Of a DNA stretch of 36,916 bases, positions 3,619 through 36,516 are shown in pieces. The notes under the pieces are model-generated. The model was not told where the DNA came from, did not search any database, and saw only the letters and a program-made list of their open reading frames with translations. The stretch is from a bacterium (GTDB taxonomy: Bacteria; JAHJDO01). Within the stretch, counting starts at the first letter, position 1; the number at the start of each line of letters is the position of its first letter. A program made the position numbers and the translations under genes. The stretch is from the NCBI GenBank assembly GCA_030631525.1, contig DAOVKY010000001.1, positions 1 to 36,916 on the forward strand, in the 5' to 3' direction.

Positions 3619-4299
3619 CTATTTGGGAGTGCAGTTGATAAGATGTTTCCTGTGTTCAATGGAATGGCAATTTGGGCACAGGACTTCCAAGTTATCAAGT
3701 CTATTGTTTCGTCTATTTCTATCTTTGTGATGAATGCCAAGAATTTCTGGATGCTTATCATATCCGCATCTTTGACATTTTGTTATCCATCCTCTCCTTA
3801 CAAATGCTCTGCGAATACCATTAAGTTTCTTGACTCTGAATATCTCTCGCTGGGCAATATTATGGCAAGTATGACTACAAAACTTTGCTTTATTATTTCC
3901 TCTATATACATCAAATTTCTTTCCGCATTGTTGGCATATAATCGTTATAGAGCCAGAATAATATCCTGCTTTTTTTCTGCATGGTTTAGAGCAATACTTT
4001 GCTATCACATTTTTATTGCATTTATACGTAAATTTCTTTCCGCATTGAGTGCAAGTTCCTGTTCTCTCTTTGTTGTATTGTCTGAGATTAGCAAGTCCAT
4101 TACATCTATGGGAGCAAAATTTTGCATCTTTGCTTCTGCTTTTAGGAACATAAAAAGGTTTTTTACAATGCAAGCATATGATTTTTTCAGTATCATAAAT
4201 ATAGCGATTAGAACTATTGCGACATTTTATAGAGCAATATCTCGTTGCACGATAGCCATTGATAATTTTAGAACCGCAAGTTGGACATATTTTATTCAT
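3619..4299 (-). CDS. HNH homing endonuclease with four N-terminal CxxC...(F/Y)CSxxC zinc-ribbon repeats
   Basis: The C-terminus GIHHKDRNRRNNRLDNLEVLCPNCH is an HNH motif. The gene sits antisense between the adaptor and nozzle genes. ATG 4299 is preferred over TTG 4320. Confidence 0.85.
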   Translation of the reverse strand: MNKICPTCGSKIINGYRATRYCSIKCRNSSNRYIYDTEKIICLHCKKPFYVPKSRSKDAKFCSHRCNGLANLRQYNKERTGTCTQCGKKFTYKCNKNVIAKYCSKPCRKKAGYYSGSITIICQQCGKKFDVYRGNNKAKFCSHTCHNIAQREIFRVKKLNGIRRAFVRRGWITKCQRCGYDKHPEILGIHHKDRNRRNNRLDNLEVLCPNCHSIEHRKHLINCTPK

Positions 4300-4305
4300 G
4301 CAATA

Positions 4306-4334
4306 AGTATAACATTGCAATATCTATCTGTCAA
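4306..4334 (-). promoter_or_regulatory. Sigma70-like promoter for the antisense HNH gene
   Basis: On the minus strand: TTGACA (4334-4329), a 17-nt spacer, then TATACT (4311-4306). The ATG at 4299 begins 7 nt after the -10, so the mRNA may be leaderless. Confidence 0.5.
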
Positions 4335-4354
4335 GAGAAAAGGAGAAGTGTATC

Positions 4355-7300
4355 GTGCCACGTCAAGACCCCATTTTATCTAATTTTACGGCGGGAGAAA
4401 TTTCAAGTAGCCTCTATGGTAGAGTTGACTTGGCTAAGTATTACAATGGATGCAGACTTCTTGAGAATTATCTGATAAAGCCGCAGGGCGGTGCAGTTCG
4501 AAGGCCCGGAACTTATTACGTCGAAGATGTCAAATATCATAATCGGAAGGTGCGCTTAATTCCTTTTGAATTCTCTGATACTCAGGCATATATTCTTGAA
4601 TTCGGACATGAGTATATTCGTTTCTATATGGATGAAGGCCAGCTTCAATCTGGTTCTGCTGCGTATGAGATTGCTTCTCCCTATCAAGAAAGCGATCTAT
4701 TTGAACTTGATTATGCGCAGTCTGCCGATGTTATGTATATTGTTCATCCGGACTACGCTCCTAGAAAGCTGACACGGACTGGTCATACTGCTTGGACTTT
4801 ATCTACTCCAAGTTTCACTGCTAATCCATTCACAGGTGCGAATAAGTATCCTTCCTGTGTGGAATTCTTTGAGCAAAGGTTATTCTTCGCTAATAGCAAC
4901 GATGATCCTCAAAAAATATGGGGTTCAAAGTCTGCTGAATACGAAAATATGACTACAGGTGCCGGAGATGATGACGCTGTTGAATATACGATTGCTGCTT
5001 CAAAGGTTAATGCTATAAGGTGGCTACAGGCCAAAGATGTCTTATTGTTCGGCACAATAGGGGCAGAATGGAGATTGGGAGCTACCAGCGCAAGTGAGCC
5101 TATCACTCCGACAAATGTTTTATGCAGAAGGCAATCGACCTATGGCTCTGCGCTTGTTAAGCCGGTTACAGTCGGGCAAGCTATTCTATTCCTGCAGAGA
5201 GCAAGAAGGAAAGTTCGGGAGCTTGTTTATAGTTTTGAACAGGATACCTATCTGGCCCCTGATATGAATTTGCTTGCTGATCATATGACAAAAAGCGGCA
5301 TTGTAGATATGGCATATCAGCAAGAGCCTGATTCAATTCTCTGGTCTGTATTGAGTAATGGATATCTGGTTGGAATGACATATCAGCGGGATCAAGAGGT
5401 TGTTGGCTGGCATAGGCATATCACAAACGGAAAAGTTGAGAGTGTTGCCTGTATTCCCTCAAAGGAAGTGATCAGTGCTATTAAAGAAAGCGAAATTGAC
5501 TGGATGGAATATCCTACAGACGCATTGGCTCAAAATGCATATCCTGCTTATCCAAGAAAAGAAATAGACTATATGGAATATGCTACGAATGTGCTGGCGC
5601 AGGCGGCGTATGTGAGCGATGGTTCGGCAGTAGCTGATTGGACGACTTATGGAAGTCGGGGTATCGGAATAGGACAATTTTACGAAATTAAAGGAATACA
5701 TTATGACCCCGCAAGCGGATTTATTTATGTTGCGGATTGTCATAATGACCGCATAGTAAAAACAAAGATAGACGGCACAGGGTGGACTACGCTTGGCGGA
5801 TTTAATAAACCTATTGGAATATATTACGATTCCGCAAGTGGATTTATTTATGTTGGCAATGCAAATAGCAATAATATAGTAAAAACAAAGATAGACGGAA
5901 CAGGGTGGACTACGCTTGGCGGATTTTCAGAACCTAGAGGAATATATTACGATTCCGCAAGTGAATTTATTTATGTTATACAAGCTCATTTAATTATTAA
6001 GACAAAGATAGACGGAACAGGGTGGACTACTTACGGCTCGCAAGGCAGTGGAGTAGGACAATTTAGTTATCCTTCTGGAATACATTATGACCCTGCAAGT
6101 GGATTTATTTATGTTGCGGACTATAACAATGGTCGCATAGTAAAGACAAAGATAGACGGAACAGGGTGGACTACGCTTGGCGGATTTAATAAACCTAGAG
6201 GAATACATTATGACCCCGCAAGTGGATTTATTTATGTTGCGGACTATAGCAATGACCACATAGTAAAGACAAAGATAGACGGAACAGGGTGGACTACTTA
6301 CGGCTCGCAAGGCAGTGGAGTAGGACAATTTCATTCTCCTTTTGATATAGCCTATGACCCTGCAAGTGGATTTATTTATGTTGCGGACTATTATTATAAT
6401 GACCGCATAGTAAAAACAGACGCAGGCTGGGGAGGTTTACTTACTTTACAATCCTACTCCGAATCTATAATCAAATGGCAGGGTTCTTATTCTTTAAAAG
6501 GCGTAGCATTAATAACTGAAAGTCTCAACGACACACTCACTCGGACAGTAAGCCCAACAATAAATATGTCTGGGCAAAACAATATATTTTTAGATGTAAG
6601 AGCAAGCAGAACAGGTTCTAATTTCAAGATTGAGTTCCACGATAGTGGCGGGAATACGATAACGCATACAATAAATATAGTTGCTGCGAATACTTGGCAA
6701 ACTGAGGATATAGATATCTCTGCAGTCGCTGACGCTGATAAGGACGCTATTGATCAGATTAAAATAACGATATTAAATGCAGATGCTGAGAATATTTTCT
6801 ATCTTGACAATATTTTCACTGGTATTGATCTTAAAGCTTATTCAGCGTATCCCGCTCATGAGTATGATAGAGGAAATGGTTCTGACGGCGAAATAACGCT
6901 AGGATCAACAAAAAATATCAATACCGATGTTATTTCCTGTAGCCTTCAATGTTATTCCGAAGGCACGATAAAAACGCAAGGCACATATGCTTTAAAGATA
7001 TTGTCAGATCTGACAGGAAGTCTAAATCAAACGCTTACGAGAACGGTTAATCCTGTTATAGACTTAACGGATAAGACAGCAATTAAATTGGATATCCGGG
7101 CTTCAAGGACTGGCGAAAACTTCAAGATAGAGTTTCACGATTCAGGCGGGAATACTATCTCTCATACCATAGACATTGTCGCAGCTGATACCTTCCAAAC
7201 AGACACGATAGATATCTCAAGTGTAGCGAACGCAGACAAGGATGCTATTGATCAGATTAAGATAACAGTTCTAAATGCTGACGCATCGAATATCATCTAT

Positions 7301-9361
7301 GTAGACAATATATTTGCTGATCCTGCTGCTCTGACTTTAGACCTGATGGAGTATGCTGATGACGCTACAGCTCAGGCCGCTTATGTAAGCAGTATCAGGA
7401 CCCACGCTGACGGGATTAACTATGATGTAACGGCTCTGGGGGCTGATAGCATAACTGCTTCGGAAGCTCCTGCAGGGATTATTGCTGGAGAGATAGATCT
7501 GCTTATGAATATGCGAGGCGGTTCAACAAAATATGCTAATGTTGGGCAATACGAAACTGCGAAAGTGGCTTCTATCAACGCTAGTGTCATCACTTTAACT
7601 ACAAATATTTTAAAGATTTATGGCGAGTCTGCGAATTCAGATCTAACGGATCAGAAACTAATTGTCCAGCGAGTTCCTCAATATTCTGCGGTTACTATCA
7701 ATAATAGCGGGAAGCTGACTGCTACTGCTTGGAATGGAACAAAAGGCGGGGTTGTTGTCTTAATGTGCGCCGGCATTGTTGAAGTTAAGACAGGGGGCAG
7801 TATCGATGTTTCTGAATTAGGGTATAGAGGGGGGATAGGTTGTATTTCGGTTAACTGCACCGCATATCAGGGAGAAGGCAATAAAGGTGCTGGAAGTCAA
7901 TCCCTGCTTGCAAATGGCAACGGTGGTGGTGGTGGTTGGGGAATTAATAAAGTCTCTCCAGCAGATGAAGGAGCTGGCGGTTCAGGTGGACATATAAATG
8001 CAGGACAAAAGGGGAATGGAAGGGGTGGTGCCTATAAGGGCGGCGATGGCGGAGAAGCTGTCGGAAATGCTGATTTGAGTAAAATGTTTTTTGGTGGTGG
8101 TTCAGGTGGCGATGCACAACCTGAGCAGCCACAGAGGAATGGTGTTGCGGGTGGTGGTATTATCTATTTAATAACTGATGAAATTAAGGGGGCAGGTAAT
8201 ATATTTGCTAAAGGGAAACAAGGTCAAACGGAACAATGTTCGGGCGCTGGTGGTTCTGTTTTAGTTGAAAGGAATTTATATCAATTCACAGGCACTGTGT
8301 CTGTCGCAGGTGGTTTAGCAGGAGGCTGTGATCACTATTGTGGAAAAGCTGGCTCTGACGGCAGAAGTAAAACAGATTCAGAGGATGAAGATATAGTCGA
8401 GATACAAGGCGATTATTCATTAAAGGTTATTGCTAATCAGGATGATAGCGAGGACGGATATCTATTAAAAACCTTTGACTCTTCTTTGGATTTAAGCAAG
8501 GATAATACAATACAATTTTATACGAAATCAAACAGAGTTGGAGAGAATTTCAAACTGCAGATAAAAAGCGAGGATACGGAAGTCGTTACAGAAAAGTCAG
8601 TAAATATCCTTGTTGCTGATGAATGGCAGACTGTAGAATGGGATATTTCTGGGGTTGCAGAGAAAGATAAAAAAGATATCAAATGGCTCTATGTTGTAAT
8701 TACAAACGACGATGCTGAGAATACTTTTTACTTAGACAATATAATTGCTATAGGCGAGTATATCTCTACAGGCGAAGATCAAGTCTGGCTGGCAGTCAAG
8801 CGCACCATAAATGGGGTTGTAAAGCGATTTGTGGAGTATTTAAAGCCGCAAGCCTTTGCTAGTCTGCAGGACGCATTCTTCGTTGATTCTGGTCTGTCTT
8901 ATGATGGTTCTGCTGCGACAATTATATCAGGGTTGGATCATCTCATTGGCGAGGAAGTTGTTATTCTTGCTGATGGGCTTAAGATAGCGGCGCAAACAGT
9001 CAATGCAAGCGGGGAGATAACGCTGGAGACGGCTGCAAAGAAAGTTCATGCAGGTCTAGCTTCGCTTCCTAAGATACAAACAATGAATATAGAGGCTGGT
9101 TCTCAATTAGGGACTTCACAAGGCAAAATTAAGCGAATACACGAGGTTAAAATCAGACTGAAAGATACAGTCGGTGGTAAATTCGGTTATGACGAAAATA
9201 ACTTGGAGAGCATGTCAGGAACTGTCTTGTTTTCAGGCGATAAAATCGTGACCTTTCCTTATGGTTATGAGCGGGATTATTTCGTCATGATAACGCAGCC
9301 AGATCCTTTGCCGATGACAGTGATTGCGCTAATGCCTTCTATTGTTACAGAAGATGGATAA
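4355..9361 (+). CDS. Giant tail tubular protein B / nozzle-like protein (1,668 aa) with NHL propeller, three CBM-like modules and a Gly-rich domain inserted
   Basis: AAGGAG RBS and GTG start. The N-terminal part (about 370 aa) and the C-terminal part (about 200 aa, e.g. GKIKRIHEVKIRLKDTVGG) look like a podovirus nozzle core. It sits downstream of the gp11-like gene. The insert is described under findings. Confidence 0.65.
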   Translation: MPRQDPILSNFTAGEISSSLYGRVDLAKYYNGCRLLENYLIKPQGGAVRRPGTYYVEDVKYHNRKVRLIPFEFSDTQAYILEFGHEYIRFYMDEGQLQSGSAAYEIASPYQESDLFELDYAQSADVMYIVHPDYAPRKLTRTGHTAWTLSTPSFTANPFTGANKYPSCVEFFEQRLFFANSNDDPQKIWGSKSAEYENMTTGAGDDDAVEYTIAASKVNAIRWLQAKDVLLFGTIGAEWRLGATSASEPITPTNVLCRRQSTYGSALVKPVTVGQAILFLQRARRKVRELVYSFEQDTYLAPDMNLLADHMTKSGIVDMAYQQEPDSILWSVLSNGYLVGMTYQRDQEVVGWHRHITNGKVESVACIPSKEVISAIKESEIDWMEYPTDALAQNAYPAYPRKEIDYMEYATNVLAQAAYVSDGSAVADWTTYGSRGIGIGQFYEIKGIHYDPASGFIYVADCHNDRIVKTKIDGTGWTTLGGFNKPIGIYYDSASGFIYVGNANSNNIVKTKIDGTGWTTLGGFSEPRGIYYDSASEFIYVIQAHLIIKTKIDGTGWTTYGSQGSGVGQFSYPSGIHYDPASGFIYVADYNNGRIVKTKIDGTGWTTLGGFNKPRGIHYDPASGFIYVADYSNDHIVKTKIDGTGWTTYGSQGSGVGQFHSPFDIAYDPASGFIYVADYYYNDRIVKTDAGWGGLLTLQSYSESIIKWQGSYSLKGVALITESLNDTLTRTVSPTINMSGQNNIFLDVRASRTGSNFKIEFHDSGGNTITHTINIVAANTWQTEDIDISAVADADKDAIDQIKITILNADAENIFYLDNIFTGIDLKAYSAYPAHEYDRGNGSDGEITLGSTKNINTDVISCSLQCYSEGTIKTQGTYALKILSDLTGSLNQTLTRTVNPVIDLTDKTAIKLDIRASRTGENFKIEFHDSGGNTISHTIDIVAADTFQTDTIDISSVANADKDAIDQIKITVLNADASNIIYVDNIFADPAALTLDLMEYADDATAQAAYVSSIRTHADGINYDVTALGADSITASEAPAGIIAGEIDLLMNMRGGSTKYANVGQYETAKVASINASVITLTTNILKIYGESANSDLTDQKLIVQRVPQYSAVTINNSGKLTATAWNGTKGGVVVLMCAGIVEVKTGGSIDVSELGYRGGIGCISVNCTAYQGEGNKGAGSQSLLANGNGGGGGWGINKVSPADEGAGGSGGHINAGQKGNGRGGAYKGGDGGEAVGNADLSKMFFGGGSGGDAQPEQPQRNGVAGGGIIYLITDEIKGAGNIFAKGKQGQTEQCSGAGGSVLVERNLYQFTGTVSVAGGLAGGCDHYCGKAGSDGRSKTDSEDEDIVEIQGDYSLKVIANQDDSEDGYLLKTFDSSLDLSKDNTIQFYTKSNRVGENFKLQIKSEDTEVVTEKSVNILVADEWQTVEWDISGVAEKDKKDIKWLYVVITNDDAENTFYLDNIIAIGEYISTGEDQVWLAVKRTINGVVKRFVEYLKPQAFASLQDAFFVDSGLSYDGSAATIISGLDHLIGEEVVILADGLKIAAQTVNASGEITLETAAKKVHAGLASLPKIQTMNIEAGSQLGTSQGKIKRIHEVKIRLKDTVGGKFGYDENNLESMSGTVLFSGDKIVTFPYGYERDYFVMITQPDPLPMTVIALMPSIVTEDG
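5639..6430 (+). repeat. Six tandem coding repeats of about 117-141 bp (NHL-type propeller blades) with long exact DNA matches
   Basis: The blade consensus is WTT(Y/L)G..(F)..P.GI.YD.ASGFIYVAD..N.RIVKTKIDGTG. For example, about 62 nt at roughly 6002-6063 recur exactly at roughly 6269-6330. Confidence 0.85.
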
Positions 9362-9365
9362 ACTA

Positions 9366-9374
9366 TGGTATAAT
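9366..9374 (+). promoter_or_regulatory. Extended -10 element (TGgTATAAT) upstream of an HNH gene
   Basis: tggtataat at 9366-9374, followed by tgtttttGGAGGA and ATG 9392. The same layout occurs at 35804-35812. Confidence 0.35.
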
Positions 9375-9391
9375 GTTTTTGGAGGACTGAT

Positions 9392-10003
9392 ATGCCAACA
9401 GGAATTTACATAAGAACAAAAGAAGCAAGAGAGAATACAGGAAAAGCTAAAATGGGAAAGAAAAATCCTATGTTTGGGAAGCCGACTTGGAATAAAGGGA
9501 AAGTGGGAATTTATTCAAAAGAAACCTTAAGAAAAAACGTTGAAGCACATCTTGGTAAACACTCTGCGAATGAATTTAAAAAAGGACATAAAGCTTGGAA
9601 TAGAGGATTAAAAGGGGTTCTGAAAGCTTGGAATAAGGGAATTCCTAATCCAAATTTTCAGGGAGAAAATAATCCTAAATGGAAAGGTGGCATTACTCCT
9701 TTATACGACCGAATTAGAAAGCTACCAGAATACAAAGAATGGCGAACGTCTATTTACAAGCGAGATAACTATACCTGCCAAGAATGTGGCAGTCAAGAAA
9801 GCGGGACACTCAATGCACATCACAGTGATAAATTCTTTGCTGAATTACTTGCAGAGTTTCTGCAGGAGTATGACCAGTTCAGTCCGTATGAGGATATAGA
9901 TACGCTCTTGCGATTGGCGATGAAATGGCAGCCATTCTGGACTGCTGAGGGAATTACATATTGCGATGATTGTCATATAGAAGAACATAAGGGAAAGCGA
10001 TAA
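9392..10003 (+). CDS. HNH homing endonuclease (paralog family 'WKGGITP...DQFSPYED...CH')
   Basis: GGAGG RBS. The sequence NPKWKGGITPL...YKEWR...RDNYTCQECG...HH...LLAEFLQEYDQFSPYED..TLLRLA.KW.PFW.AEG...C..CH is shared with 19821-20516 and 35833-36516. Confidence 0.85.
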   Translation: MPTGIYIRTKEARENTGKAKMGKKNPMFGKPTWNKGKVGIYSKETLRKNVEAHLGKHSANEFKKGHKAWNRGLKGVLKAWNKGIPNPNFQGENNPKWKGGITPLYDRIRKLPEYKEWRTSIYKRDNYTCQECGSQESGTLNAHHSDKFFAELLAEFLQEYDQFSPYEDIDTLLRLAMKWQPFWTAEGITYCDDCHIEEHKGKR

Positions 10004-16677: not shown

Positions 16678-16851
16678 TTATTTAGTTGTTAATTTATATA
16701 GATTCCAAACAAACCAAATAACTAAACCCATGAAAATATTTCCATGTAATAAGGCTTTAAAACCATATGTATCGTGAGGACATCCGATTATGAGCAGAAC
16801 AACAAATGAAAGGATTGTTAAAAAAAGATATAGAAATTTTGACTTACTCAT
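16678..16851 (-). CDS. Possible 57-aa membrane/lipoprotein-like ORF (not in the ORF track)
   Basis: MSKSKFLYLFLTILSFVVLLIIGC... has a lipobox-like IIGC plus a second hydrophobic helix. No clear SD, and it lies in a decayed region. Confidence 0.25.
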   Translation of the reverse strand: MSKSKFLYLFLTILSFVVLLIIGCPHDTYGFKALLHGNIFMGLVIWFVWNLYKLTTK

Positions 16852-16961
16852 GTTCAAAATATACCAAACTACGGAAAGTATGTCAATATGAAAATCAACA
16901 AGATGATTGAATTAGTATTAAAACGTGATATAATAATTGATATTGATAGGAGTTAATAAAA

Positions 16962-17200
16962 ATGTCTAGATGGGATAATCCAAATTGTGGATTTCAAAAA
17001 GGTAATAAGGTTAATTTAGGCAAAACACATGTTGTGAGGATTTGCGAAATGGTAAGGGCTTATGCCAAAAGCATTATAATGAACAACGGCAAATAAGTAA
17101 TGCCATATACAGCAAACAATATCGAGCAGATAATAAAGAATATCTAAATAAATATTATAAACAATGGAAAAAGACAGTGGATACCTGCAATGGGAGATGA
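16962..17200 (+). pseudogene. Decayed HNH endonuclease remnant (frameshifted, catalytic core missing)
   Basis: Frame A (16962-17096) reads MSRWDNPNCGFQKGNKVNLGK... Another frame (17015-17200) reads CEDLRNGKGLCQKHYNEQ...YRADNKEYLNKYYKQWKK. That matches the N-terminus of 21223-21819 (KGLCKKCYDKQYNEQ...YQKDNKEYLLGYRKKYWQ). No HNH motif follows. Confidence 0.6.
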
Positions 17201-19304: not shown

Positions 19305-19616
19305 ATGAAAAAACTAATACTAATAGGACTAACAGGCTTGATGTTGACAAGCTGCGCTCCTGCAAGAATGCTTTACAGAGAAATGCCAAAGGAAACTGAT
19401 AAAAGCGCAATTATAAAGCAGGGTCCTCCTTTCAAAAAGAAACCTATTGTCGGCAAAGGTTATGAAATTATTGTCTATGGTAATATAACTACCAAAGTAA
19501 CTCTTAAAGACGGCACAATAGTCGAAATCAGCACAATTCAACCCAGTATGATTGAGAGAGTGATGGGCTGGCTTTATATCGCTAAACCCAATAACGTTGA
19601 TATAGGGGGTAAATAA
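19305..19616 (+). CDS. Lipoprotein (lipobox LTSC); possible o-spanin-like or exclusion protein
   Basis: AAGGAG RBS. MKKLILIGLTGLMLTSC has a canonical lipobox. Confidence 0.6.
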   Translation: MKKLILIGLTGLMLTSCAPARMLYREMPKETDKSAIIKQGPPFKKKPIVGKGYEIIVYGNITTKVTLKDGTIVEISTIQPSMIERVMGWLYIAKPNNVDIGGK

Positions 19617-19617
19617 C

Positions 19618-19797
19618 ATGGAGAAGTCAAGTCTTGGCTTGCCGTCCGGAAGCGTCCGGGCTATTCTGGCTCTTTTGCTTACTGGTGCAGTAATTTATTT
19701 ATGTATTATCGGCAAAATCCCAGCAGAAAGACTTTTAACTATATTCGGGATGGTAACTGCATTTTATTTTGGAGCAAAGAAATCAAATAACTTGTAA
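19618..19797 (+). CDS. 59-aa two-TM protein, holin-like (not in the ORF track)
   Basis: The ATG is 1 nt after the preceding stop. The sequence MEKSSLGLPSGSVRAILALLLTGAVIYLCIIGKIPAERLLTIFGMVTAFYFGAKKSNNL has two hydrophobic helices and a basic C-terminus. Confidence 0.5.
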   Translation: MEKSSLGLPSGSVRAILALLLTGAVIYLCIIGKIPAERLLTIFGMVTAFYFGAKKSNNL

Positions 19798-19820: not shown

Positions 19821-20516
19821 ATGACTATGAAGAAATTAAATTTGCCTCATTGCAGGGATTGTGGAAAACCATTATCTCATCGTAAATATAGTTTATGTCG
19901 AAGTTGTAGTCTGTCAGGTAAAAAATCTCGTTTCTATATAGACGGAAGAACTCTCCAAAAACATTATTGCAAAGATTGTGGCAAGTTATTGGCTAAGAGT
20001 TCTTATAAATCCGTTTATTGCCAAAGATGCACGCAGTTAAGTAATAAAAATCACAATTATAAAAACGGGAAACCTTATTGTAAAGAATGCGGAAAGCCAT
20101 TAACTAATTATGGTTCTGTTTATTGCCAAAGTTGTAGACAATTAGGAGAAAAAAATTCTGCATGGCAAGGCGGCATAACTCCATTAAGTGTGGCTATTAG
20201 AGCTTTGTCAGAATATAAACAATGGCATGATAATATATTTGTCCGAGATAACTATACTTGCCAAGAATGCGGCATTCATAGTGGTTGTGGCAAAGCAATT
20301 TATCTTGAAGTTCATCACAGCGAAAAATCTTTTCTTGAATTACTTCAAGAATTCCTACAAGCCTACGACCAGTTCTCTCCCTATGAAGATCAGCATACAC
20401 TTTTGAGACTTGCAACAAAATGGTTGCCGTTCTGGGATGCAGAGGGTGAGACACTTTGTAAAGATTGTCATAACTTAACTAAACAAGGAAATCTTTCAAA
20501 GAAAGGAAATATATAA
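19821..20516 (+). CDS. HNH homing endonuclease (paralog family) with three N-terminal CxxC...C..C zinc ribbons
   Basis: WQGGITPL...RDNYTCQECG...EVHH...LLQEFLQAYDQFSPYEDQHTLLRLATKWLPFWDAEGETLCKDCH. TATAAT lies at 19801-19806. Confidence 0.85.
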   Translation: MTMKKLNLPHCRDCGKPLSHRKYSLCRSCSLSGKKSRFYIDGRTLQKHYCKDCGKLLAKSSYKSVYCQRCTQLSNKNHNYKNGKPYCKECGKPLTNYGSVYCQSCRQLGEKNSAWQGGITPLSVAIRALSEYKQWHDNIFVRDNYTCQECGIHSGCGKAIYLEVHHSEKSFLELLQEFLQAYDQFSPYEDQHTLLRLATKWLPFWDAEGETLCKDCHNLTKQGNLSKKGNI

Positions 20517-21222: not shown

Positions 21223-21819
21223 TTAACGCTTGGTTTTGGTCTCTAAGGCAGGACTTGTTGATATAATGCTATTGCTGACTTTCTTATTAACCCATTCCTC
21301 TAATGTCATCGCACCTTTTCTTATATTGCAGTTCAGATGTGCTACTCCTAAATTTTCATAGAGATTTGTTCCACCTCTTGAAAGCGGAGTCAAATGCTCT
21401 AGCGAACTATCCGCAAACTCCACAGGTTTGAAGCACAGGACGCAGGTTAGTGTGCCATATTTCTTGATATTGTCCTCGTAGACTCGCTGAACAACTTCCT
21501 TTGTTAAGCCCTTTTCTAATGTTCTGCGATTATGTTTATGAGCTTTTGCAACTGCTTTTCCTGCGGGTGTCTGCCAATATTTTTTCCTATATCCCAAAAG
21601 ATATTCCTTATTGTCTTTCTGATATAGCTTTGCTCTTATAGCAGGGTGTTTTTTATTATCTTTAAGATATTGCTTTCTTTCTGTTTTATGCCCTTTGCAA
21701 TATTGTTCATTGTATTGCTTGTCATAGCATTTTTTACACAACCCTTTTGCAAAATGTTTGTTGTTGCAATTTTCTATACCACACAGTCTTAATGGTCTTT
21801 CATAGACTCCTGTAGGCAT
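21223..21819 (-). CDS. HNH endonuclease (second family)
   Basis: The N-terminus is C..NC......GLCKKCY. The HNH core is SLEHLTPLSRGGTNLYENLGVAHLNCNIRKG. Confidence 0.85.
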   Translation of the reverse strand: MPTGVYERPLRLCGIENCNNKHFAKGLCKKCYDKQYNEQYCKGHKTERKQYLKDNKKHPAIRAKLYQKDNKEYLLGYRKKYWQTPAGKAVAKAHKHNRRTLEKGLTKEVVQRVYEDNIKKYGTLTCVLCFKPVEFADSSLEHLTPLSRGGTNLYENLGVAHLNCNIRKGAMTLEEWVNKKVSNSIISTSPALETKTKR

Positions 21820-27031: not shown

Positions 27032-27631
27032 TTATAAGTTATTGATCTTTTTCCAATTCACGATGTTGAGACAGGCAAGAAACACGCTAAAATCAGATTT
27101 CTCTTTGTATTCCTGCATCCGGTATGTTCCTTTCTCTAACAACTGAACTACTAATCTGCGCTTGATTTTGCCCTCTCTTATCTTGCCCTCGTTGTGTGCT
27201 TCCATATAGGCTGCGGTTTGCAATGCTATTGTTTTGGGAAGCGTAGTGCCTGACTTGATATCAATCAGCGTTTTAATACCATCTATCCGGCCAATCCTGT
27301 CATAAGTCCCCGCGTAACGATATATCTTTGAATAGACAATTTGCTCTGAACTCTCAAGTATAAATCCTGTATCTTTTTCCCACTTAAGCCAAGCATGTAG
27401 ATAAGGTTTTAATGCTGGATCAAGACTGCCCATATCTAAGTCGTTTATATCGTGAAGGTGGCATGCTGTATGGACAGCCTTTCCAAATTCCTGCGCTCTC
27501 TTTAACACATCGGGATTGGCTTTGCTGAAGTCGCTCAATCCCGCTTCTTCAATGCTGTTAGTAACGCCCGGAATTACCCTGCCTGTATCGGTATCCGTGT
27601 AGATGTGAGTTTCTGGATCGCAAATTATCAT
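27032..27631 (-). CDS. PD-(D/E)XK exonuclease (YqaJ/Cas4-like recombination exonuclease)
   Basis: GTYDRIG...LIDIKSG is a D...(D/E)xK motif, and QTAAY is a QxxxY motif. The ATG at 27631 overlaps the recT stop (ATGA). The track's N-terminal extension overlaps recT. Confidence 0.7.
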   Translation of the reverse strand: MIICDPETHIYTDTDTGRVIPGVTNSIEEAGLSDFSKANPDVLKRAQEFGKAVHTACHLHDINDLDMGSLDPALKPYLHAWLKWEKDTGFILESSEQIVYSKIYRYAGTYDRIGRIDGIKTLIDIKSGTTLPKTIALQTAAYMEAHNEGKIREGKIKRRLVVQLLEKGTYRMQEYKEKSDFSVFLACLNIVNWKKINNL

Positions 27632-28722
27632 CCTTCTGATCCCGGTTCTCTTTCTTCTCCACCATCCTTCTTTGCCTGTAGCATTTCCTGTATTATCGCC
27701 GCGCCCTCTTTGATTGTCTTGATCTGGTTGGCGTGTTCGCATCCGTTAGCACCTAAGACTTCATAATAAACCTTATCCCCGACTGTTGCTTTTATATTTT
27801 CGAAGTCTTTTATCATCTCAGCAAAGGCACTATCAGGCTTTTTCTTTGACATATCTTTTTCTGACTCGATCTCTGGCGCACCTGATTTCTTTCCCTTTTT
27901 CCCGGATGCCTTTGGTTTGTCTTTTTTCTCAGGCTCAGGCTTCGGTTCTGGTTCTGGCTCTGGCTTATCTGATAGGGATTTGGGTTGTTCAACCTCTGGC
28001 TTTCCTACCACTTCTGCAGACCTCATGATATCTATCGGCACGTCGTAGTCTTTATCTACCGCGTCTCTGAACTCTGCTGATACCGGCAACCATTTTGAAT
28101 GCCTGCGGAATACTGTTTTCTTTGCCATCTCATTCCAATCTGTAACCCATGGCCCCTTTGTAGCAGCTTGCGATCTCTTGCGTATGGCTTCTACCTCTTG
28201 GATATTCATTACCTCATAGCTGGTGGACCCGTCTTTGAGCTTTACAAATGAATATGCCGCTATAACGTTACCTTTTTTATCAATGGCAGGCCTGTGTTCT
28301 AGGTTTCCATTAGTCCCGAATGAATATGCAAAGAAGTCATTCTCGCATACCACGTCAGCGTGTATGTCCGCAATCTCCCCGCTTCTGCGGGCCAGCGCAA
28401 CCAGTCCTTTGTAATCAATAATCAGTGTGCAGATAGTTTTATTTGTCTTTTTACTGCGGTATGGTATAAGGTGCGCTCTACGTCCATCTGGTTCAAGTCC
28501 TAGTTCTGAGCAACTCATAAGACACTCTGTTAAACTTTCCTTTGAGCAAGCAAGCAGCTGGGGTGTCTTATTAAAGGCCGTTAATGCTACCCTCAAAAAT
28601 CTATCTACTGTTAGATGCTTAGGCAGTGCCAGAGCAAATTGTTTCTTTGCCGCACCCGATGTCACCAGATCCTTAATGTTGTTTGGATCTACTTCGTAGT
28701 CTTTTCCGTTCTCGTTTGTCAT
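27628..28722 (-). CDS. recT: RecT-family single-strand annealing protein with a C-terminal extension
   Basis: The core LPKHLTVDRFLRVALTAFNKTPQLLACSKESL...ELGLEPDG..AHLIPY...IIDYKGL..LARRSGEI is RecT-like. It is followed by a KPEPEPEPKPEPEKK linker and an extra domain of about 70 aa. Confidence 0.8.
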   Translation of the reverse strand: MTNENGKDYEVDPNNIKDLVTSGAAKKQFALALPKHLTVDRFLRVALTAFNKTPQLLACSKESLTECLMSCSELGLEPDGRRAHLIPYRSKKTNKTICTLIIDYKGLVALARRSGEIADIHADVVCENDFFAYSFGTNGNLEHRPAIDKKGNVIAAYSFVKLKDGSTSYEVMNIQEVEAIRKRSQAATKGPWVTDWNEMAKKTVFRRHSKWLPVSAEFRDAVDKDYDVPIDIMRSAEVVGKPEVEQPKSLSDKPEPEPEPKPEPEKKDKPKASGKKGKKSGAPEIESEKDMSKKKPDSAFAEMIKDFENIKATVGDKVYYEVLGANGCEHANQIKTIKEGAAIIQEMLQAKKDGGEEREPGSEG

Positions 28723-30211: not shown

Positions 30212-30682
30212 TTATTTCTCCTTTTTTTTAAAGATCTGTTTTAGCTTCTGTTTGTGCTTTATGTGTATTTGTTTACCATTTTCCCATTGTATAATGGTTT
30301 GCACGCTCACATTTAATTCAGACGCAAGTTTCTCTTGAGTCCATTTTTTTGTTTCTCTCAGTTCTCTCACAAAAATTTGTTTTAATTTGCGGTCATATCT
30401 TCCGCGAAAATAGTCTGGCAATCTTATCTTCTTTTCATTCTTAATTATTTTATAAACTTCGTTACTGCCCAAAACCTCAGCACGATACCATTCATTGCGG
30501 ATACGATGTTTTCTTGCTGCATAATGGATTTTGCTTTCCAGTTCTTTATCTCCTTCAAAGAGCTTGCGTATTTTTAATTCCTCATAGTGCGCTGTTTGTA
30601 AATGGTCATAACGACCTGCAATGTTTTCAGTCCAGCCTATTTTAATCGGTTTATTCTCTCCGGCTTGAATAAAGTAAATCAT
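30212..30682 (-). CDS. T5orf172 (GIY-YIG superfamily) domain protein fused to a C-terminal XRE-type HTH
   Basis: YFIQAGENKPIKIGWTENIAGRYDHLQTAH...E..IH......R.RNEWY is the T5orf172 pattern. WTQEKLASELNVSVQTIIQWENGK is an HTH. ATG 30682 overlaps the stop of the upstream HTH gene (ATGA). Confidence 0.65.
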   Translation of the reverse strand: MIYFIQAGENKPIKIGWTENIAGRYDHLQTAHYEELKIRKLFEGDKELESKIHYAARKHRIRNEWYRAEVLGSNEVYKIIKNEKKIRLPDYFRGRYDRKLKQIFVRELRETKKWTQEKLASELNVSVQTIIQWENGKQIHIKHKQKLKQIFKKKEK

Positions 30683-30840
30683 TTCTTCCCTAATATTTTT
30701 TCGAGTTTTTTTAGAAATATCCGATGAGGTTTTGTTTTGCCTGTTTCCCAACGATGAACTGACATCATAGATACTCCAACTTTTGAGGCTACATCTTCTA
30801 ATGTCCAGCCTCTTTTCTCACGCAATTTCTTAATATCCAT
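30679..30840 (-). CDS. 53-aa Cro/CI-type (XRE) HTH regulator (not in the ORF track)
   Basis: AAGGAGAG RBS. The sequence is MDIKKLREKRGWTLEDVASKVGVSMMSVHRWETGKTKPHRIFLKKLEKILGKK. It explains the spurious N-terminal extension of track ORF 30212-30751. Confidence 0.7.
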   Translation of the reverse strand: MDIKKLREKRGWTLEDVASKVGVSMMSVHRWETGKTKPHRIFLKKLEKILGKK

Positions 30841-31097: not shown

Positions 31098-31137
31098 GGT
31101 TTGCTCCTTTTTTTGTTTTAGTTTACCCATGTTTTCC

Positions 31138-31487: not shown

Positions 31488-31500
31488 CAAAAACAGCCCC

Positions 31501-31592: not shown

Positions 31593-31696
31593 AGTAGATT
31601 AAGAGTTAGATTAAGAAGAGAAAGAGATTACTTAATTAAGGGACCTCAATATTTTTCACAAAAATCTCTTAATTTTTCTCAATAAAAATATACTTA

Positions 31697-31726
31697 TTGA
31701 CAAATTATATTTCTTTCTGATATTCT
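31697..31726 (+). promoter_or_regulatory. Putative rightward (packaging/late) promoter
   Basis: TTGACA (31697-31702), an 18-nt spacer, then TATTCT (31721-31726). The terS ATG begins 7 nt after the -10. Confidence 0.45.
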
Positions 31727-31732
31727 TTGTTT

Positions 31733-32197
31733 ATGCCTGCCAAAAAGAAGCTGAGTGAGAAAATTAAAAAGTTCGGCCGAGAATATCTTATCGATTTTAA
31801 TGGAGCTAAGGCATATATCCGGGCTGGTTATAGTAAAAAGGGCGCAAAACAATCTGCATCTAAATTACTACTGACGAATACTGACCTTCAGGCTTATCTT
31901 GCTGACTTAATTAATACTCAGACTCAGGATGACGAGATATCTGTCAAAGAAATTATCCGAAAATTAAAAATTGTCGTGGATCGCTGTATGCAGGAGATTG
32001 AAGTTAGAGATAAGAAAGGCAACCCGACAGGAGAATGGCAATTTGACTCTGCCGGTGCGAATAGAAGTCTGGAATTGCTCGGGAAACATTTGGCAATGTT
32101 CACTGATAAATTTAATATGACTAATGACGATCTACATATTACTGTTGAGTTACAAAATGCAGGACAGGCGAAGTGTCCTGATGAAGTGATTCAGTAG
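31733..32197 (+). CDS. terS: Terminase small subunit
   Basis: KKFGREYLIDFNGAKAYIRAGYSKKGAKQSASKLLLTNTDLQAYL matches the Terminase_2 signature (EYL.d.Na..A...AGYS...A......LL). It lies directly upstream of terL. Confidence 0.75.
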   Translation: MPAKKKLSEKIKKFGREYLIDFNGAKAYIRAGYSKKGAKQSASKLLLTNTDLQAYLADLINTQTQDDEISVKEIIRKLKIVVDRCMQEIEVRDKKGNPTGEWQFDSAGANRSLELLGKHLAMFTDKFNMTNDDLHITVELQNAGQAKCPDEVIQ

Positions 32198-32258
32198 GTA
32201 GCAACGTCCTAGCCTGAGCGAGACTTTGCGAATTTGGGCGTAACATGGGGGTAAGAAA

Positions 32259-33698
32259 TTGGAAATTGGCTTCAAATTAACCACGAAACAGACAGAAGCG
32301 TGGATTCCGCTCTTTTCGTTAAAAGATGTTGACGTGCTTTATGGTGGAGCTAAAGGCGGCGGAAAGTCCTATCTTTTATGTCTCTGGGCGTGGTTATGGG
32401 TTAGAAAACTCATAAAAATCTTACAAATTCCTATGTTAAAAAATCCCATTCCTCTTGGTTTTATAGGCCGTAAGAGAGGCGTGGATTTTTCCAAGACAAC
32501 GCTTGAAACTTGGAAGAAAATCATACCTCAAGACGGATATTACATCCGGGAGCAAGATAAAGAAATCGTTATTGAGGGGCGGGCCAAAATTCTATTTGGG
32601 GGTTTGGATGATCGGGAGAATATCAATAAATTTAACTCTGCAGAGCTGGCTTTCTTTGCTATTGATCAGGCTGAGGAGACAGAGAGAAGCGATATTGGTG
32701 TGATTGAGGCGTCAATAAGGCTAATATATAACAAAATTCAGCCGCCATATAAGTCTCTTTACACTGCTAATCCTGCGGAGTGCTGGCTCAAGAATGACTT
32801 CGTAAAAGGCGAGAGGGCTGGTGCGATATTCGTGCCTGCGCTTCCTGCGGACAATGAGCATCTGCCTGATAACTACATTGAGCGGTTAGAGAAGTCCTTC
32901 TCCTATGACCAAGTGCTTCTGCAGGCCTACAGGGATGGGAACTGGGAAGTTATGATGTCCTCATACGCGGTGATTCCGTCTAAATACATGGATGAACTGC
33001 AGGGATATAATCATCATCCGGAAAAAGACAGGTTCTGTGTTGTGTGTGATCCTGCGACCGGCGGGGATGAATGTGTGATTTACGTGTTTGAGCATTACAA
33101 AATCCGAGATATGAAGATATTACATACAGACGACACAATGATAATCGTGGGCGAAATGATGATAATGGGCAATCAATATGGTGCTGAGGTGTTCGGTGTT
33201 GACGTGATAGGCATAGGCAAAGGCGTATATGATAGACTGGTGGAGCTAATAATAAAGCCAATCAGGGCAGCAGAAAAGGGAAGAACGAGAGAGGCTGATA
33301 ACTTTCCATTTGAGGGTGCGATTGCTACCAAAAAGGTGGTGGATATCCATTCTTCTCGGACATCTTCGGACCCAGAGCGATGGGGCAATCTCCGTGATGA
33401 GATATGGTGGAAGGCTCGGGAACTTATCATTGACCATAAGGTTGCATATCCTCAAGATGAGGAGCTAAGAAGGCAGCTGTGCGCTGTGAGATATAAGACA
33501 ATCAGTAGTGACGGAAAGGTTAAACTTGAGCTAAAAGAGGATACTAAAAAGAGGCTGGGGCGCAGTCCTGACAGGGCTGATGCCTATGTGTATGGTCTGT
33601 GGACAATGCAGCAAGTTAAGTCGGCAAGTAAAGAGTTGTATGGCCGGCAAAAGCAAAGTTCGTATAATTCGGATTATGACGTGCTTGGATATAAATAA
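32259..33698 (+). CDS. terL: Terminase large subunit
   Basis: Walker A is LYGGAKGGGKSY, and the C-terminal part is nuclease-like. There is no in-frame ATG upstream of the Walker A, so the start is TTG 32259 with a GGGGGT RBS. Confidence 0.8.
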   Translation: MEIGFKLTTKQTEAWIPLFSLKDVDVLYGGAKGGGKSYLLCLWAWLWVRKLIKILQIPMLKNPIPLGFIGRKRGVDFSKTTLETWKKIIPQDGYYIREQDKEIVIEGRAKILFGGLDDRENINKFNSAELAFFAIDQAEETERSDIGVIEASIRLIYNKIQPPYKSLYTANPAECWLKNDFVKGERAGAIFVPALPADNEHLPDNYIERLEKSFSYDQVLLQAYRDGNWEVMMSSYAVIPSKYMDELQGYNHHPEKDRFCVVCDPATGGDECVIYVFEHYKIRDMKILHTDDTMIIVGEMMIMGNQYGAEVFGVDVIGIGKGVYDRLVELIIKPIRAAEKGRTREADNFPFEGAIATKKVVDIHSSRTSSDPERWGNLRDEIWWKARELIIDHKVAYPQDEELRRQLCAVRYKTISSDGKVKLELKEDTKKRLGRSPDRADAYVYGLWTMQQVKSASKELYGRQKQSSYNSDYDVLGYK

Positions 33699-33752
33699 TG
33701 ATTGACAAAGAGAAATAATGTTTGATAGACTTTATAAAAAGAGGGGCAAATT

Positions 33753-34130
33753 ATGAGTGGTTCAAAAGGTGGAGGTGGAGGCGGTTCAACCATTTCAAGG
33801 ATTTTAAATCCAATATCAATGGTAAGTCCAAATGTAGCGTCAGTGATTAATCCGGTAATGTCATATCTAACTACTCCCAAAAAAGAATGGAAAAGCACAA
33901 CAATGGGCAGATGGTTTACAACTCCATCGACTAAAATGCCAGAGTCTAAAGGCAGCGGTTCTGCGCAGGCAGTGGCAGACGCAGCGTCAGAAAAGTCCAT
34001 GATGGCGGCCAAAGAGGCAGAAAAGAAACGATTAAGGGCTGCTGCGGGGAGAAGTTCTCTTATTAAAACGTCTGGTAGGGGTGTTCTTGAGCCTGCAACT
34101 ACTAAGAAAAAGAAATTGTTAGGAGAATAA
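33753..34130 (+). CDS. Small Gly-run/basic protein between terL and portal
   Basis: GAGGGG RBS. The sequence runs MSGSKGGGGGGS... and has a C-terminus GRSSLIKTSGRGVLE...KKKKLLGE, which resembles small virion proteins of podoviruses. Function unknown. Confidence 0.5.
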   Translation: MSGSKGGGGGGSTISRILNPISMVSPNVASVINPVMSYLTTPKKEWKSTTMGRWFTTPSTKMPESKGSGSAQAVADAASEKSMMAAKEAEKKRLRAAAGRSSLIKTSGRGVLEPATTKKKKLLGE

Positions 34131-34137
34131 AACTGTT

Positions 34138-35811
34138 ATGGCGGTAGATCCTAAACAGCTTATTGATCGTTTAGCAAGTATGAAGTCTAAGCGTTCAATG
34201 TGGACTTCGCTTTGGGATGATATTATCAAGTATGTTACTCCTCGTCAGACGCTTTCTTCCGGTATTGCTGCAGCAGGCAGTAGCAAAATGTCAGAGGTCT
34301 ACGACGGAACTGCTATCAATGGCAACACGATCCTCGCTTCTGGTCTCTATGGCTTCTTATGCCCGCCTCATAGCAAGTGGTTTGCTTTTAAGGCTAAGGA
34401 TCCCGCTGTAAATGAAACCTACGATGTGCGTCAATGGCTGTTATCTGCAACGGACAGAATGCACGAAGAACTTGCAGAGAGTAATTTTGGGCTTGAGGTG
34501 TTCTCGTTGTTTCTGGCTCTCAGTAGCATTGGCACGCCTTGCATGTATGAGGAAGCCGGAGAGAGAACTACGCTTAATTTTAGCACCAAGCATATCTCAG
34601 AATTCTATATCGCAGAGAATAAGGACGGACTGGTTGATACAGTGTTTAGGGAGTTCTCATATACGTGCAGACAGGCAGTTCAGCATTTCGGAATAGAGAA
34701 TGTGGGCGAAAAAGTCAGGAAATCGTATGGAGCGAATAAATACGAGGAGTCCTTCAAATTTCTGCATGCTGTATATCCGAGAGAGGACTACGACAGTTCA
34801 AAGCGAGATAGTGTCAATATGCCTTTTGCTTCGGTGTATGTGGGTATAGAGGATAAGGAAGTCATCAGCGAGTCTGGTTATAAGGAATTTCCGTTTATGG
34901 TTCCACGCTGGATGAAAGCAAGTGGCGAGATATATGGCAGATCTCCGAGTTCAAGTGGTTTGGCTGATATTAAAATGCTGAATCAGATGTCATATACAAT
35001 CATCCGGAGAGGTCAAAAGGAAGTGGACCCACCTGTTAATGCGCCTGCTTACATGGAAGGACGGATCAATCAGAAGCCGAGAGGGGTTAATTATTACAAA
35101 GAGGGGGCGAAGGACAGAGTTGAAGAAGTAAAATCAGGAGGCAATTTCTCTATTGGCATGGAGTTGGAAAATCAGCGCAGAGAGTTCATCAATAGAGTTT
35201 ATTTTGTAGACTTGTTTCTGGCTTTGACTATGGCAACAAAGACAATGACAATCCCCGAAGTTCAGGAAAGGCTTCAAGAAAAGCTGATTGTTCTCGCACC
35301 TATTCTCGGGCGCCTGCAGTCAGAATTGTTTGATCCATTGCTTTATCGCTCATTTGAGCTTTGCAAGAGGGCTGGTGTATTTGGAGAAATTGACGGAGAC
35401 GAAAATCTCGTTGACGCTCCGGAGGCATTACAGGGTCAAGAATTAGAGATTGAATATACCTCAAAGCTGGCTAGAGCTATGAAGCTGACAGAGGTTAGTT
35501 CGTTTAATGCTGCAATGGAGTCTATTGCTCCGTTGGTGCAGGTGGATCAGAACGTGGTTGATAACTTTGACATAGACGATATTGCGCGGGGTATTATGGA
35601 AAGACACGGAGTTCCTGCAACATGGATACGAGATTGGCAAATAGTAAAGGATATGAGGCAAGCGAGACAAGAGGAATTGCAAAACGCAGCAATGGCGGAG
35701 AAAGTGGGGCAGGCAGCGGATATTGCTCAAAAATTAAGCGGAGAAGTAAAACCGACATCAGTTTTAAAAGGAATGGAAGACGCTGGTGTAACAGCGGAAA
35801 GTGTGCTATAA
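34138..35811 (+). CDS. Portal (head-to-tail connector) protein
   Basis: 557 aa and located after terL. The N-terminus LWDDIIKYVTPRQ and the overall pattern are typical of podovirus connector proteins. Confidence 0.75.
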   Translation: MAVDPKQLIDRLASMKSKRSMWTSLWDDIIKYVTPRQTLSSGIAAAGSSKMSEVYDGTAINGNTILASGLYGFLCPPHSKWFAFKAKDPAVNETYDVRQWLLSATDRMHEELAESNFGLEVFSLFLALSSIGTPCMYEEAGERTTLNFSTKHISEFYIAENKDGLVDTVFREFSYTCRQAVQHFGIENVGEKVRKSYGANKYEESFKFLHAVYPREDYDSSKRDSVNMPFASVYVGIEDKEVISESGYKEFPFMVPRWMKASGEIYGRSPSSSGLADIKMLNQMSYTIIRRGQKEVDPPVNAPAYMEGRINQKPRGVNYYKEGAKDRVEEVKSGGNFSIGMELENQRREFINRVYFVDLFLALTMATKTMTIPEVQERLQEKLIVLAPILGRLQSELFDPLLYRSFELCKRAGVFGEIDGDENLVDAPEALQGQELEIEYTSKLARAMKLTEVSSFNAAMESIAPLVQVDQNVVDNFDIDDIARGIMERHGVPATWIRDWQIVKDMRQARQEELQNAAMAEKVGQAADIAQKLSGEVKPTSVLKGMEDAGVTAESVL

Positions 35812-35812
35812 T
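35804..35812 (+). promoter_or_regulatory. Extended -10 element (TGcTATAAT) upstream of an HNH gene, overlapping the portal stop
   Basis: tgctataat at 35804-35812 is followed by gttttcAGGAGA and GTG 35833. Compare 9366-9394. Confidence 0.35.
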
Positions 35813-35832
35813 GTTTTCAGGAGAATAGATAA

Positions 35833-36516
35833 GTGAAAACCTTTTGTCAATTCTGCAATAAGGAATTTAATATAAGACCATCGAGATTAGGGAAGTTTTG
35901 TTCTAAAGTTTGCTACGATATGAGCCAAAGCAAAAAAGAAATTGTAATCTGTAAAAATTGTAACAAGAAAATTCCAATTAAGTCGTCTCGCAAGAAGCTG
36001 AAACAATTTAAGTTCTGTTCAAGACAATGTCAAAGAGAATGGATATATAAGGCAAGCGTTAAAGTATGTTCTGTTTGTAAAAAGAAATTTCATAGTAAGT
36101 GGCAATATTGCTCAAAAGAATGCCGAATAATAGCCAAAAGAGGCAAGAATAATCCAATGTGGAATGGCGGTATTACTCCAATAGGGAAATTATTAAGAGA
36201 TAGTTCAAAATATAGAGAATGGGTTGAAGCGATTTTCCAGAGAGATAATTGGACTTGTCAAGACTGCGGTAGAAAAAGGAAAGCTGGGGATAGAGTAATT
36301 TTAGAAGCACATCATTGCGATAAGACTTTTGCCGAATTACTCGCAGAATTCCTGCAAGAATACAATCAATTCAGTCCATTTGAAGACCAAGACACACTCT
36401 TACGGTTAGCAACAAAGTGGTTGCCGTTCTGGGATGCAGAAGGTGAAACACTTTGCAAAAGATGTCATTATAAAACCAATTCTTATGGTATTACAATTAA
36501 AAACAGAAAGGGGTAA
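35833..36516 (+). CDS. HNH homing endonuclease (paralog family) with three N-terminal CxxC...FCSxxC zinc ribbons
   Basis: GTG start with AGGAG upstream. The sequence is NPMWNGGITPI...RDNWTCQDCG...EAHH...LLAEFLQEYNQFSPFEDQDTLLRLATKWLPFWDAEGETLCKRCH. Confidence 0.85.
   Translation: MKTFCQFCNKEFNIRPSRLGKFCSKVCYDMSQSKKEIVICKNCNKKIPIKSSRKKLKQFKFCSRQCQREWIYKASVKVCSVCKKKFHSKWQYCSKECRIIAKRGKNNPMWNGGITPIGKLLRDSSKYREWVEAIFQRDNWTCQDCGRKRKAGDRVILEAHHCDKTFAELLAEFLQEYNQFSPFEDQDTLLRLATKWLPFWDAEGETLCKRCHYKTNSYGITIKNRKG

Follow-up and report, generated by a model that had tools for sequence, protein, structure and literature searches.

Among the closest described systems are the free-standing HNH homing endonucleases of T4-like phages (mobA-E, together with trans-homing by I-TevIII), which have been reviewed (PMC2988022; PMC2790892); the free-standing HNH gene mobE homes with co-conversion (PMC2790892), and homing endonuclease genes make up 11% of the T4 coding sequence (PMC10448857). 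In ICP1 and many other phages, homing endonuclease genes lie beside essential genes, bound tracts of exchange, carry repetitive zinc fingers and undergo domain shuffling (Barth, Dunham and Seed, 2023; PMC10448857), and in Skunavirus site-specific variability of HNH genes goes together with marker exclusion (PMC12724721). Here, five intact HNH genes (HNH-A to HNH-E) and one remnant are described from a stretch of 36,916 nucleotides (nt; hereafter the window), which is the whole of contig DAOVKY010000001.1 (C114 in our numbering) within a fragmentary 1.1-Mb metagenome-assembled genome (GCA_030631525.1) and is the nearly complete genome of an uncultured podovirus. We consider it highly probable, at roughly 85% and on the strength of sequence comparison, that this podovirus genome has been colonised by free-standing HNH homing endonuclease genes, five in number and of three families, and that one further copy has decayed in it.

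The density of these genes is similar to that in T4 (11% of coding sequence there, ~9% of the window here), and, as in T4-like phages, they are intergenic among essential genes, have their own promoters (promoter-like signals in the present case), join HNH to DNA-binding modules and show presence/absence with co-conversion. The carrier differs, being a podovirus of ~38 kb rather than a 169-kb myovirus, as does the domain order, since Mob-type proteins have an N-terminal HNH-3 plus a zinc finger at the C-terminus (PMC10448857), whereas here the N-terminus is DNA-binding and the HNH is C-terminal. With ICP1 the window shares endonuclease genes beside capsid, portal and tail genes and at the edges of divergent tracts, zinc-finger arrays, domain shuffling and a T5orf172 gene; in contrast to the IPA-HNH and T5orf172 enzymes of ICP1, the nucleases here are of split HNH, canonical HNH and HNH_5 type, and no large island bracketed by two endonuclease genes has been demonstrated. 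The lactococcal Skunavirus phages are alike in that the number and position of HNH genes vary among close phages, in clustering by insertion site and in the link between homing and marker exclusion, but there the enzymes are I-HmuI-like, reside in siphoviruses of Gram-positive hosts and were assayed for activity, whereas here only the genes are described.

The inventory proposed in an earlier note on this DNA (five intact HNH genes plus one wreck, about 9% of the window) was recovered at the coordinates given in Table 1: the five open reading frames (ORFs) add up to 3270 nt, or 8.9% of the window and 9.5% with the frameshifted 5' remnant, and each gene indeed lies between conserved genes, with complete flanking ORFs. 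CxxC..HH..CxxCH motifs are visible in all five proteins, and all five match PHROG families annotated as HNH endonucleases; Pfam HNH cut-offs are reached by two only, the minus-strand genes HNH-A and HNH-D. The genes fall in three families: HNH-A unites a canonical Pfam HNH with four zinc ribbons; HNH-D is of HNH_5 type, and the remnant is akin to its N-terminus; and HNH-B, HNH-C and HNH-E have a "split" HNH, in which ~42 amino acids (aa) separate the HH and CxxCH motifs. Arrays of CxxC...CxxC zinc ribbons, previously attributed to four genes, were found in three of the five (four ribbons in HNH-A, three each in HNH-C and HNH-E) and not in HNH-B. The Rfam scan of the window identified no group I or II intron, in agreement with the first description, and the flanking genes are intact; the HNH genes are therefore free-standing. 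A tRNA search of the window found none.

The evidence for mobility comes from HNH-C and HNH-E, for both of which the gene is present or absent at identical sites among genomes that are 94-97% identical; the check for presence/absence polymorphism suggested previously thus yielded empty sites for both. Relatives of the portal protein were found at 98, 94, 79 and 78% identity and lower, and HNH-E is missing from L046, L047 and L048, in all of which the portal gene is followed by a small basic ORF and then by Bbp19. Between L046 and the window, nucleotide identity is 95.6% across the portal gene and 95.8% in Bbp19, and the interval measures 239 nt in L046 as against 1024 nt in the window. The empty site has the sequence GTGTAAAAATGG, i.e. 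...GTG TAA AAATGG, and the filled site consists of the portal TAA, a 21-nt leader, HNH-E, its TAA, AAA and the ATG of the small ORF at 36520. The window stays at 0.96-1.00 identity to L046 up to ~35600, falls to ~0.6 at 35620-35811 and 36517-36770, and is back at 0.92-1.00 from ~36770, so that the divergent mosaic block around HNH-E extends from ~35620 to 36770. Public gene callers split or truncate HNH-E (products of 119, 61 and 198 aa).

For HNH-C, relatives were reached via the downstream DUF1353 protein, which is identical in L065 and L066 and 79% identical in L061. HNH-C is missing from all three, two of which are 94-97% identical. L065 and the window are 97.0% identical over 19309-19673 and 94.2% identical from 20497 on, the interval being 101 nt in L065 and 823 nt in the window, with breakpoints at 19673 and 20497; the right breakpoint is common to L065, L066 and L061. 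The divergent block comprises the 3' two-thirds of a gene for a 59-aa holin-like protein together with HNH-C, and, by comparison with the HNH-less relatives, HNH-C owes its final ~20 nt (CAAAGAAAGGAAATATATAA) to the holin-like gene resident there, of whose 3' end they are a relic.

For HNH-C and HNH-E alike, the inserted gene lies just within the end of its upstream neighbour, to which it gives a new end, and the former stop codon is re-used together with the sequence that couples the gene downstream. Sliding identity, 0.96-1.00 in the backbone, goes down to ~0.4-0.66 within 150-250 nt of both genes, and this flank divergence, as read from the alignments, is the classic co-conversion pattern. 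In the mechanism proposed here, each protein would combine a C-terminal HNH nuclease with a variable module for DNA recognition at the N-terminus, made up of beads-on-a-string zinc ribbons or of NUMOD3-like repeats; during co-infection with a gene-less relative, the nuclease would cut the empty allele near the insertion point, and the break would be repaired by recombination off the gene-carrying genome, copying the endonuclease gene along with 150-250 nt of donor flank. The phage has its own RecT and exonuclease, a pair that could perform the repair step. In this mechanism, the activity of the nucleases, their target sites and homing as such are proposed from sequence.

Packaging-type HNH proteins (HK97 gp74 type) are small, terminase-adjacent and conserved in all relatives. 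HNH-E, in contrast, carries three zinc ribbons and is lacking in relatives of 95% identity, and the possibility that it is a terminase-associated packaging HNH was rejected, as it follows the portal gene rather than the terminase and is absent from three relatives (L046, L047 and L048), and is therefore dispensable.

Table 1. Features of the window (positions in nt of the 36,916-nt stretch).
Feature	Position	Strand	Description
HNH-A	3619-4299	minus	four CxxC-x(14-17)-(F/Y)CSxxC ribbons, then C-terminal canonical HNH (CxxC..HH..N..CxxCH)
HNH-A promoter-like site	4334-4306	minus	TTGACA-17-(TG)TATACT; 0.02 expected by chance
Nozzle gene	4355-9361
HNH-B leader	9366-9386	plus	extended -10 (TGGTATAAT), GTTTTT, GGAGGA
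HNH-B	9392-10003	plus	NUMOD3-like repeats at N-terminus, split-HNH C-terminal domain
GNAT acetyltransferase, 145 aa	10004-10441		Pfam Acetyltransf_4; first base directly after HNH-B stop; heads internal virion protein module
Remnant	16962-17200	plus	two frames: NPNxGFxKG..LGKxH, then C..GLCQKHY..DNKEYL
Holin-like membrane ORF, 59 aa	19618-19797	plus	3' two-thirds (from ~19674) inside divergent block with HNH-C
HNH-C	19821-20516	plus	three zinc ribbons and split-HNH domain
HNH-D	21223-21819	minus	HNH_5-type nuclease; single N-terminal Cys knuckle CX4CX9CX2C
Exonuclease and RecT	27032-28722	minus	PHROG 298 and 148
T5orf172/MUG113 domain and helix-turn-helix protein	30212-30751	minus	early operon; Pfam T5orf172 29.5 bits (cut-off 20); HTH_3
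TerS and TerL	31727-33698
HNH-E leader	35804-35826	plus	extended -10 (TGCTATAAT, includes portal stop TAA 35809-35811), GTTTTC, AGGAGA
HNH-E	35833-36516	plus	three zinc ribbons and split HNH; between portal stop codon and small basic ORF
Small basic ORF, 47 aa	36520-36663	plus	Arg/Lys/Gly-rich; diverged homologue of gene directly after portal in HNH-E-less relatives
Head/packaging genes		plus	small and large terminase, portal, Bbp19-like protein, major capsid protein
Tail/internal genes		plus	tail tubular protein A, 1668-aa nozzle, internal virion proteins, 1412-aa gp16-like protein, fibre
Lysis-like cluster		plus	ends in DUF1353 protein
Early block		minus	DnaD-like protein, methyltransferase, two exonucleases, RecT, T5orf172-HTH protein

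HNH-A is flanked by orf115 and the nozzle gene and runs antisense within the late operon; it matches PHROG 1271 (E 3e-32) as well as Pfam PF01844 (26.1 bits, cut-off 21.4) and HNH_3 (24.8 bits, cut-off 24.8). It is also present in the relative L051 at 94% nucleotide identity; farther off, at least eight relatives have no HNH gene there, and tail tubular A borders directly on the nozzle gene. A 257-aa ORF fully antisense to HNH-A (window 3610-4383, plus strand) is annotated instead of it by the ENA and Logan gene callers; with zero PHROG or Pfam matches, this ORF was discarded as a real gene and is probably a shadow ORF. In L051, an extra 165-aa ORF with no family match (77-574) stands between tail tubular A and orf115 and is absent from the window, forming a second, non-nuclease indel of that region.

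HNH-B occupies the junction of the nozzle gene and the GNAT/internal virion protein genes. Its N-terminus matches NUMOD3 (PF07460) at 20.4 bits, exactly the cut-off of 20.4 and thus borderline, and precomputed PF07460 matches exist in several relatives of its family. L052, whose gp16 is 82% identical at the aa level, carries an HNH gene at the same nozzle/GNAT junction; the C-terminal domains are 66% identical in aa and group together in the tree with support 96, and the N-terminus in L052 is unlike that of HNH-B, having a different mix of NUMOD3 motifs plus a zinc ribbon.

HNH-D closes the early block on the minus strand, in convergent orientation to the late operon, and is not antisense to its neighbours; it matches its PHROG at E 5.8e-13, PF14279 at 28.7 bits (cut-off 27.5) and PF01844 at 26.9 bits (cut-off 21.4). 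In the HNH-D of L065, the 3' half has 94% nucleotide identity and the N-terminal half has diverged (61% aa identity overall); L061 has an HNH_3 gene, a RusA gene and small ORFs at this position instead. The remnant matches HNH-D residues 18-84 weakly (34% identity, E 0.015) and lacks a nuclease domain, which makes it a 5' fragment; its ATG and ribosome-binding site are preserved, as is a promoter-like TTGAAT-16-(TG)ATATAAT at 16907-16934. Adjoining the remnant, in the gap between the gp16-like and fibre genes, is an antisense 59-aa membrane ORF without family match (16678-16857, minus strand), which may be an accessory (moron) gene; just 5' of it, at 16886-16858, lies a promoter match with TTGACA-17-TATATT and an upstream TG, among the three best in the window.

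Outside the close lineage, none of ~57 related loci carries any of these HNH genes. All five are, by these comparisons, lineage-specific additions to a conserved backbone, and recent turnover was seen for two only. The earlier picture of one actively spreading family therefore stands in part: HNH-C and HNH-E are polymorphic, but the genes belong to three families rather than one, and the other three are occupied in close relatives.

The kinship of the three split-HNH copies also bears on the history of these genes. They had been regarded as close paralogs with near-identical C-termini; HNH-B, HNH-C and HNH-E do share the nuclease domain, but it is only 63-67% identical over ~100 aa (75-81% over the 53-aa core from HH to CH). 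The 23-nt exact match reported at 20421 and 36418 is present, with 0 expected by chance. In the domain tree, the three do not group together, and each has closer kin on other contigs: HNH-E joins P0242 and P0393 (72-76% identity, support 98), which lie on L068 and L067, contigs with no other protein in common with the window, HNH-C is placed near other metagenomic copies, and HNH-B groups with the L052 gene mentioned above. Recent duplication within the genome is thereby ruled out for these three, and the phylogeny suggested earlier does not support a single family spreading within the genome. L067 itself (JGI 3300042087, 10.8 kb), an unrelated phage contig, is likewise rich in such genes: three homing-endonuclease-like genes are interspersed among its GLUG/PKD structural genes, one resembling HNH-E, one of NUMOD4-HNH_3-AP2 type and one, of 320 aa, with a split HNH and NUMOD3 repeats.

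At the family level, HNH-B, HNH-C and HNH-E match PHROG 8446 (E 1e-10, 5.5e-7 and 9e-6), and HNH-E also matches PHROG 1271 (E 2.2e-19); HNH-C has a Pfam DZR_2 zinc ribbon and no Pfam HNH match, and HNH-E has no Pfam match at cut-off. The three fail Pfam HNH because a ~42-aa helical insert splits the motif (CxxC..HH / insert / CxxCH). D138, C142, C145, H161, C208 and H212 do not vary in a 37-member alignment, and C211 hardly does; the canonical Asn is not assignable in the three proteins. The best solved-structure match to their nuclease domain is the HNH endonuclease of GVE2 (5h0m), which the family profile finds in the PDB at E 8.5e-4. An AlphaFold2 model of HNH-E reached a pLDDT (predicted local distance difference test) of 87, and Foldseek with the full-length model returned zero matches at E<=0.001, its beads-on-a-string architecture being ill-suited to global structure search. 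The family comprises 2731 representative clusters in metagenomes at E<=1e-10 and is nearly absent from cultured phage records; in tblastn against cultured phages at E<=1e-5, HNH-A had zero matches and HNH-E two weak ones only.

Several points weigh against the colonisation of this genome by active homing genes. The sites of HNH-A, HNH-B and HNH-D are filled in the closest relatives that could be compared (L051, L052 and L065), and only distant relatives have them empty; ordinary phage mosaic recombination carrying an HNH along could give divergent blocks; HNH-B, HNH-C and HNH-E stay below the Pfam HNH cut-offs, the halves of the motif matching separately at E 0.08-1; and the Foldseek matches of the HNH-E model to HNH structures are weak, the best being 5h0m at E 0.17 and probability 0.94.

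The occupied sites bear on the idea that the HNH genes have been domesticated or are beneficial, through marker exclusion, host DNA degradation, satellite defence or help in packaging. It would account for the retention of HNH-A in L051 and of an HNH at the nozzle/internal virion protein junction of L052 although the flanking proteins are 43-82% identical, and for all five ORFs being intact with promoter-like signals; moreover, marker exclusion by phage HNH endonucleases has been reported (PMC12724721). HNH-C and HNH-E are nevertheless absent from otherwise near-identical genomes and hence dispensable, HNH-E does not lie next to the genes for terminase, one of the copies has fallen into decay, and marker exclusion is the homing mechanism seen from the phage's side and so no true alternative. 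Domestication is thus judged improbable.

Mosaic recombination is the core of another alternative, in which the HNH genes are passive cargo (morons) moved by general exchange, their own nucleases playing no part. Non-nuclease insertions occur nearby (the 165-aa ORF in L051) and RusA and small ORFs occupy the HNH-D position in L061, as such an explanation would have it. Yet both polymorphic blocks have an HNH gene at their centre and break off <=250 nt from it, three nuclease families with DNA-binding arrays coexist in one 38-kb genome, and in unrelated backbones the same HNH lineage recurs next to the same small basic ORF, which together leave this account extremely improbable. A further alternative takes HNH-B, HNH-C and HNH-E for catalytically dead relics that now serve as DNA-binding proteins or regulators only; their sub-threshold Pfam scores and the helical insert in place of the canonical Asn region speak for it. 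Against it stand the invariance, across 37 diverse members, of the Cys4 zinc site, of the HH histidine and of the CH at the end of the motif, and the very large size of the family (2731 clusters), as expected of a functional domain under selection, and we regard it as very unlikely.

Colonisation by free-standing homing endonucleases is therefore retained as the preferred reading, with one possible extension that concerns the small basic ORF. With a length of 46-55 aa, it recurs in L046 (1771-1923), L067 (3-143) and L068 (1202-1339), its motif being GYG.KDGS...GRNR.T.S.CRHPN; tblastn did not detect the ORF in the more distant portal relatives L001-L042. The order is reversed between backbones, the ORF lying directly upstream of the E-like gene in L067 and L068 and directly downstream of HNH-E in the window, which suggests, from gene order, that it may be a target or travelling companion of E-like HNH genes. 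It is tentatively conceivable, albeit unlikely, that HNH-B, HNH-C and HNH-E represent an uncharacterised split-HNH family, abundant in the environment and scarce in cultured phages, whose E lineage travels with or targets the small Arg-rich ORF as a mobile pair of endonuclease and target or cargo gene.

The seg and mob genes of T4 have their own promoters, and signals of a comparable kind precede the genes of the window. TGnTATAATGTTTT has just two exact copies in the window, at 9366 and 35804; GGAGGA or AGGAGA comes after each of them, 12-15 nt ahead of the start codon. Like the 23-nt repeat and the HNH-A promoter, the leader would rarely arise by chance. This leader had been described as a portable upstream cassette; it is common to HNH-B and HNH-E, but it is not present upstream of related HNH genes in L052, L067 and L068, and the match is mostly promoter and ribosome-binding-site consensus (TGnTATAAT plus GGAG), so the cassette was rejected. 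The TTGACA-17-TATACT promoter claimed for the antisense copy, HNH-A, is present and ranks among the three best sigma-70-like matches of the window; it ends 6 nt before the ATG at 4299, and the predicted mRNA would therefore be leaderless. Upstream of HNH-C, the signal is TTTTATAAT. Exact TGnTATAAT occurs seven times in the window (2.9 expected), and four of these are intergenic and correctly oriented, namely before HNH-B, HNH-E and the remnant, with the fourth being the main early promoter. Private promoters for all HNH genes are plausible on these motifs.

As regards the backbone, the structural module resembles that of pelagiphage HTVC010P, and HTVC010P-type pelagiphages are the closest cultured relatives, with ~40% portal identity. 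No GenBank phage matched 20 kb of the window in Megablast, a scan of genome contigs for the gp16-like protein gave zero relatives, IMG/VR held distant relatives only (portal identity <=39%), and an exact-protein look-up with the 145-aa GNAT protein returned no match. The window was reproduced at 99.9-100% identity by independent ENA and Logan assemblies (L049, L050 and L064), which excludes an assembly artefact. The sister-sample contig L049 (39,321 nt, 99.9% identical) fills, with its positions 5729-6785, the ~1.06 kb missing at the junction from window position 36916 to 1 (the rest of Bbp19 and the scaffold gene) and appears to overlap itself by ~1.26 kb inside the repeat-rich nozzle gene; the true genome is probably ~38 kb long. 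Internal DNA repeats of 72-91% identity (BLAST self-hits) occur in the nozzle gene at 5677-6418 and are probably the point where assemblies break. The T5orf172-HTH protein of the early operon may represent one more gene of the homing-endonuclease-like kind, from another, GIY-YIG-related family, T5orf172 genes being counted as homing endonuclease genes in PMC10448857; in L048, the terminase and portal genes are separated by a T5orf172 fragment of 88 aa.

Altogether, the case represents the ordinary behaviour of free-standing homing endonucleases, fitting the known picture in every tested respect and involving no new mechanism. It shows that the large split-HNH family is poorly annotated, being missed by Pfam, with two copies mis-called by gene callers, and that homing-endonuclease gene densities like those of T4 occur in phages of ~38 kb too. 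Moreover, it offers a natural example, obtained from metagenomes only, of how homing endonuclease genes shape a small podovirus, with empty and filled alleles and co-conversion tracts resolved to the base.

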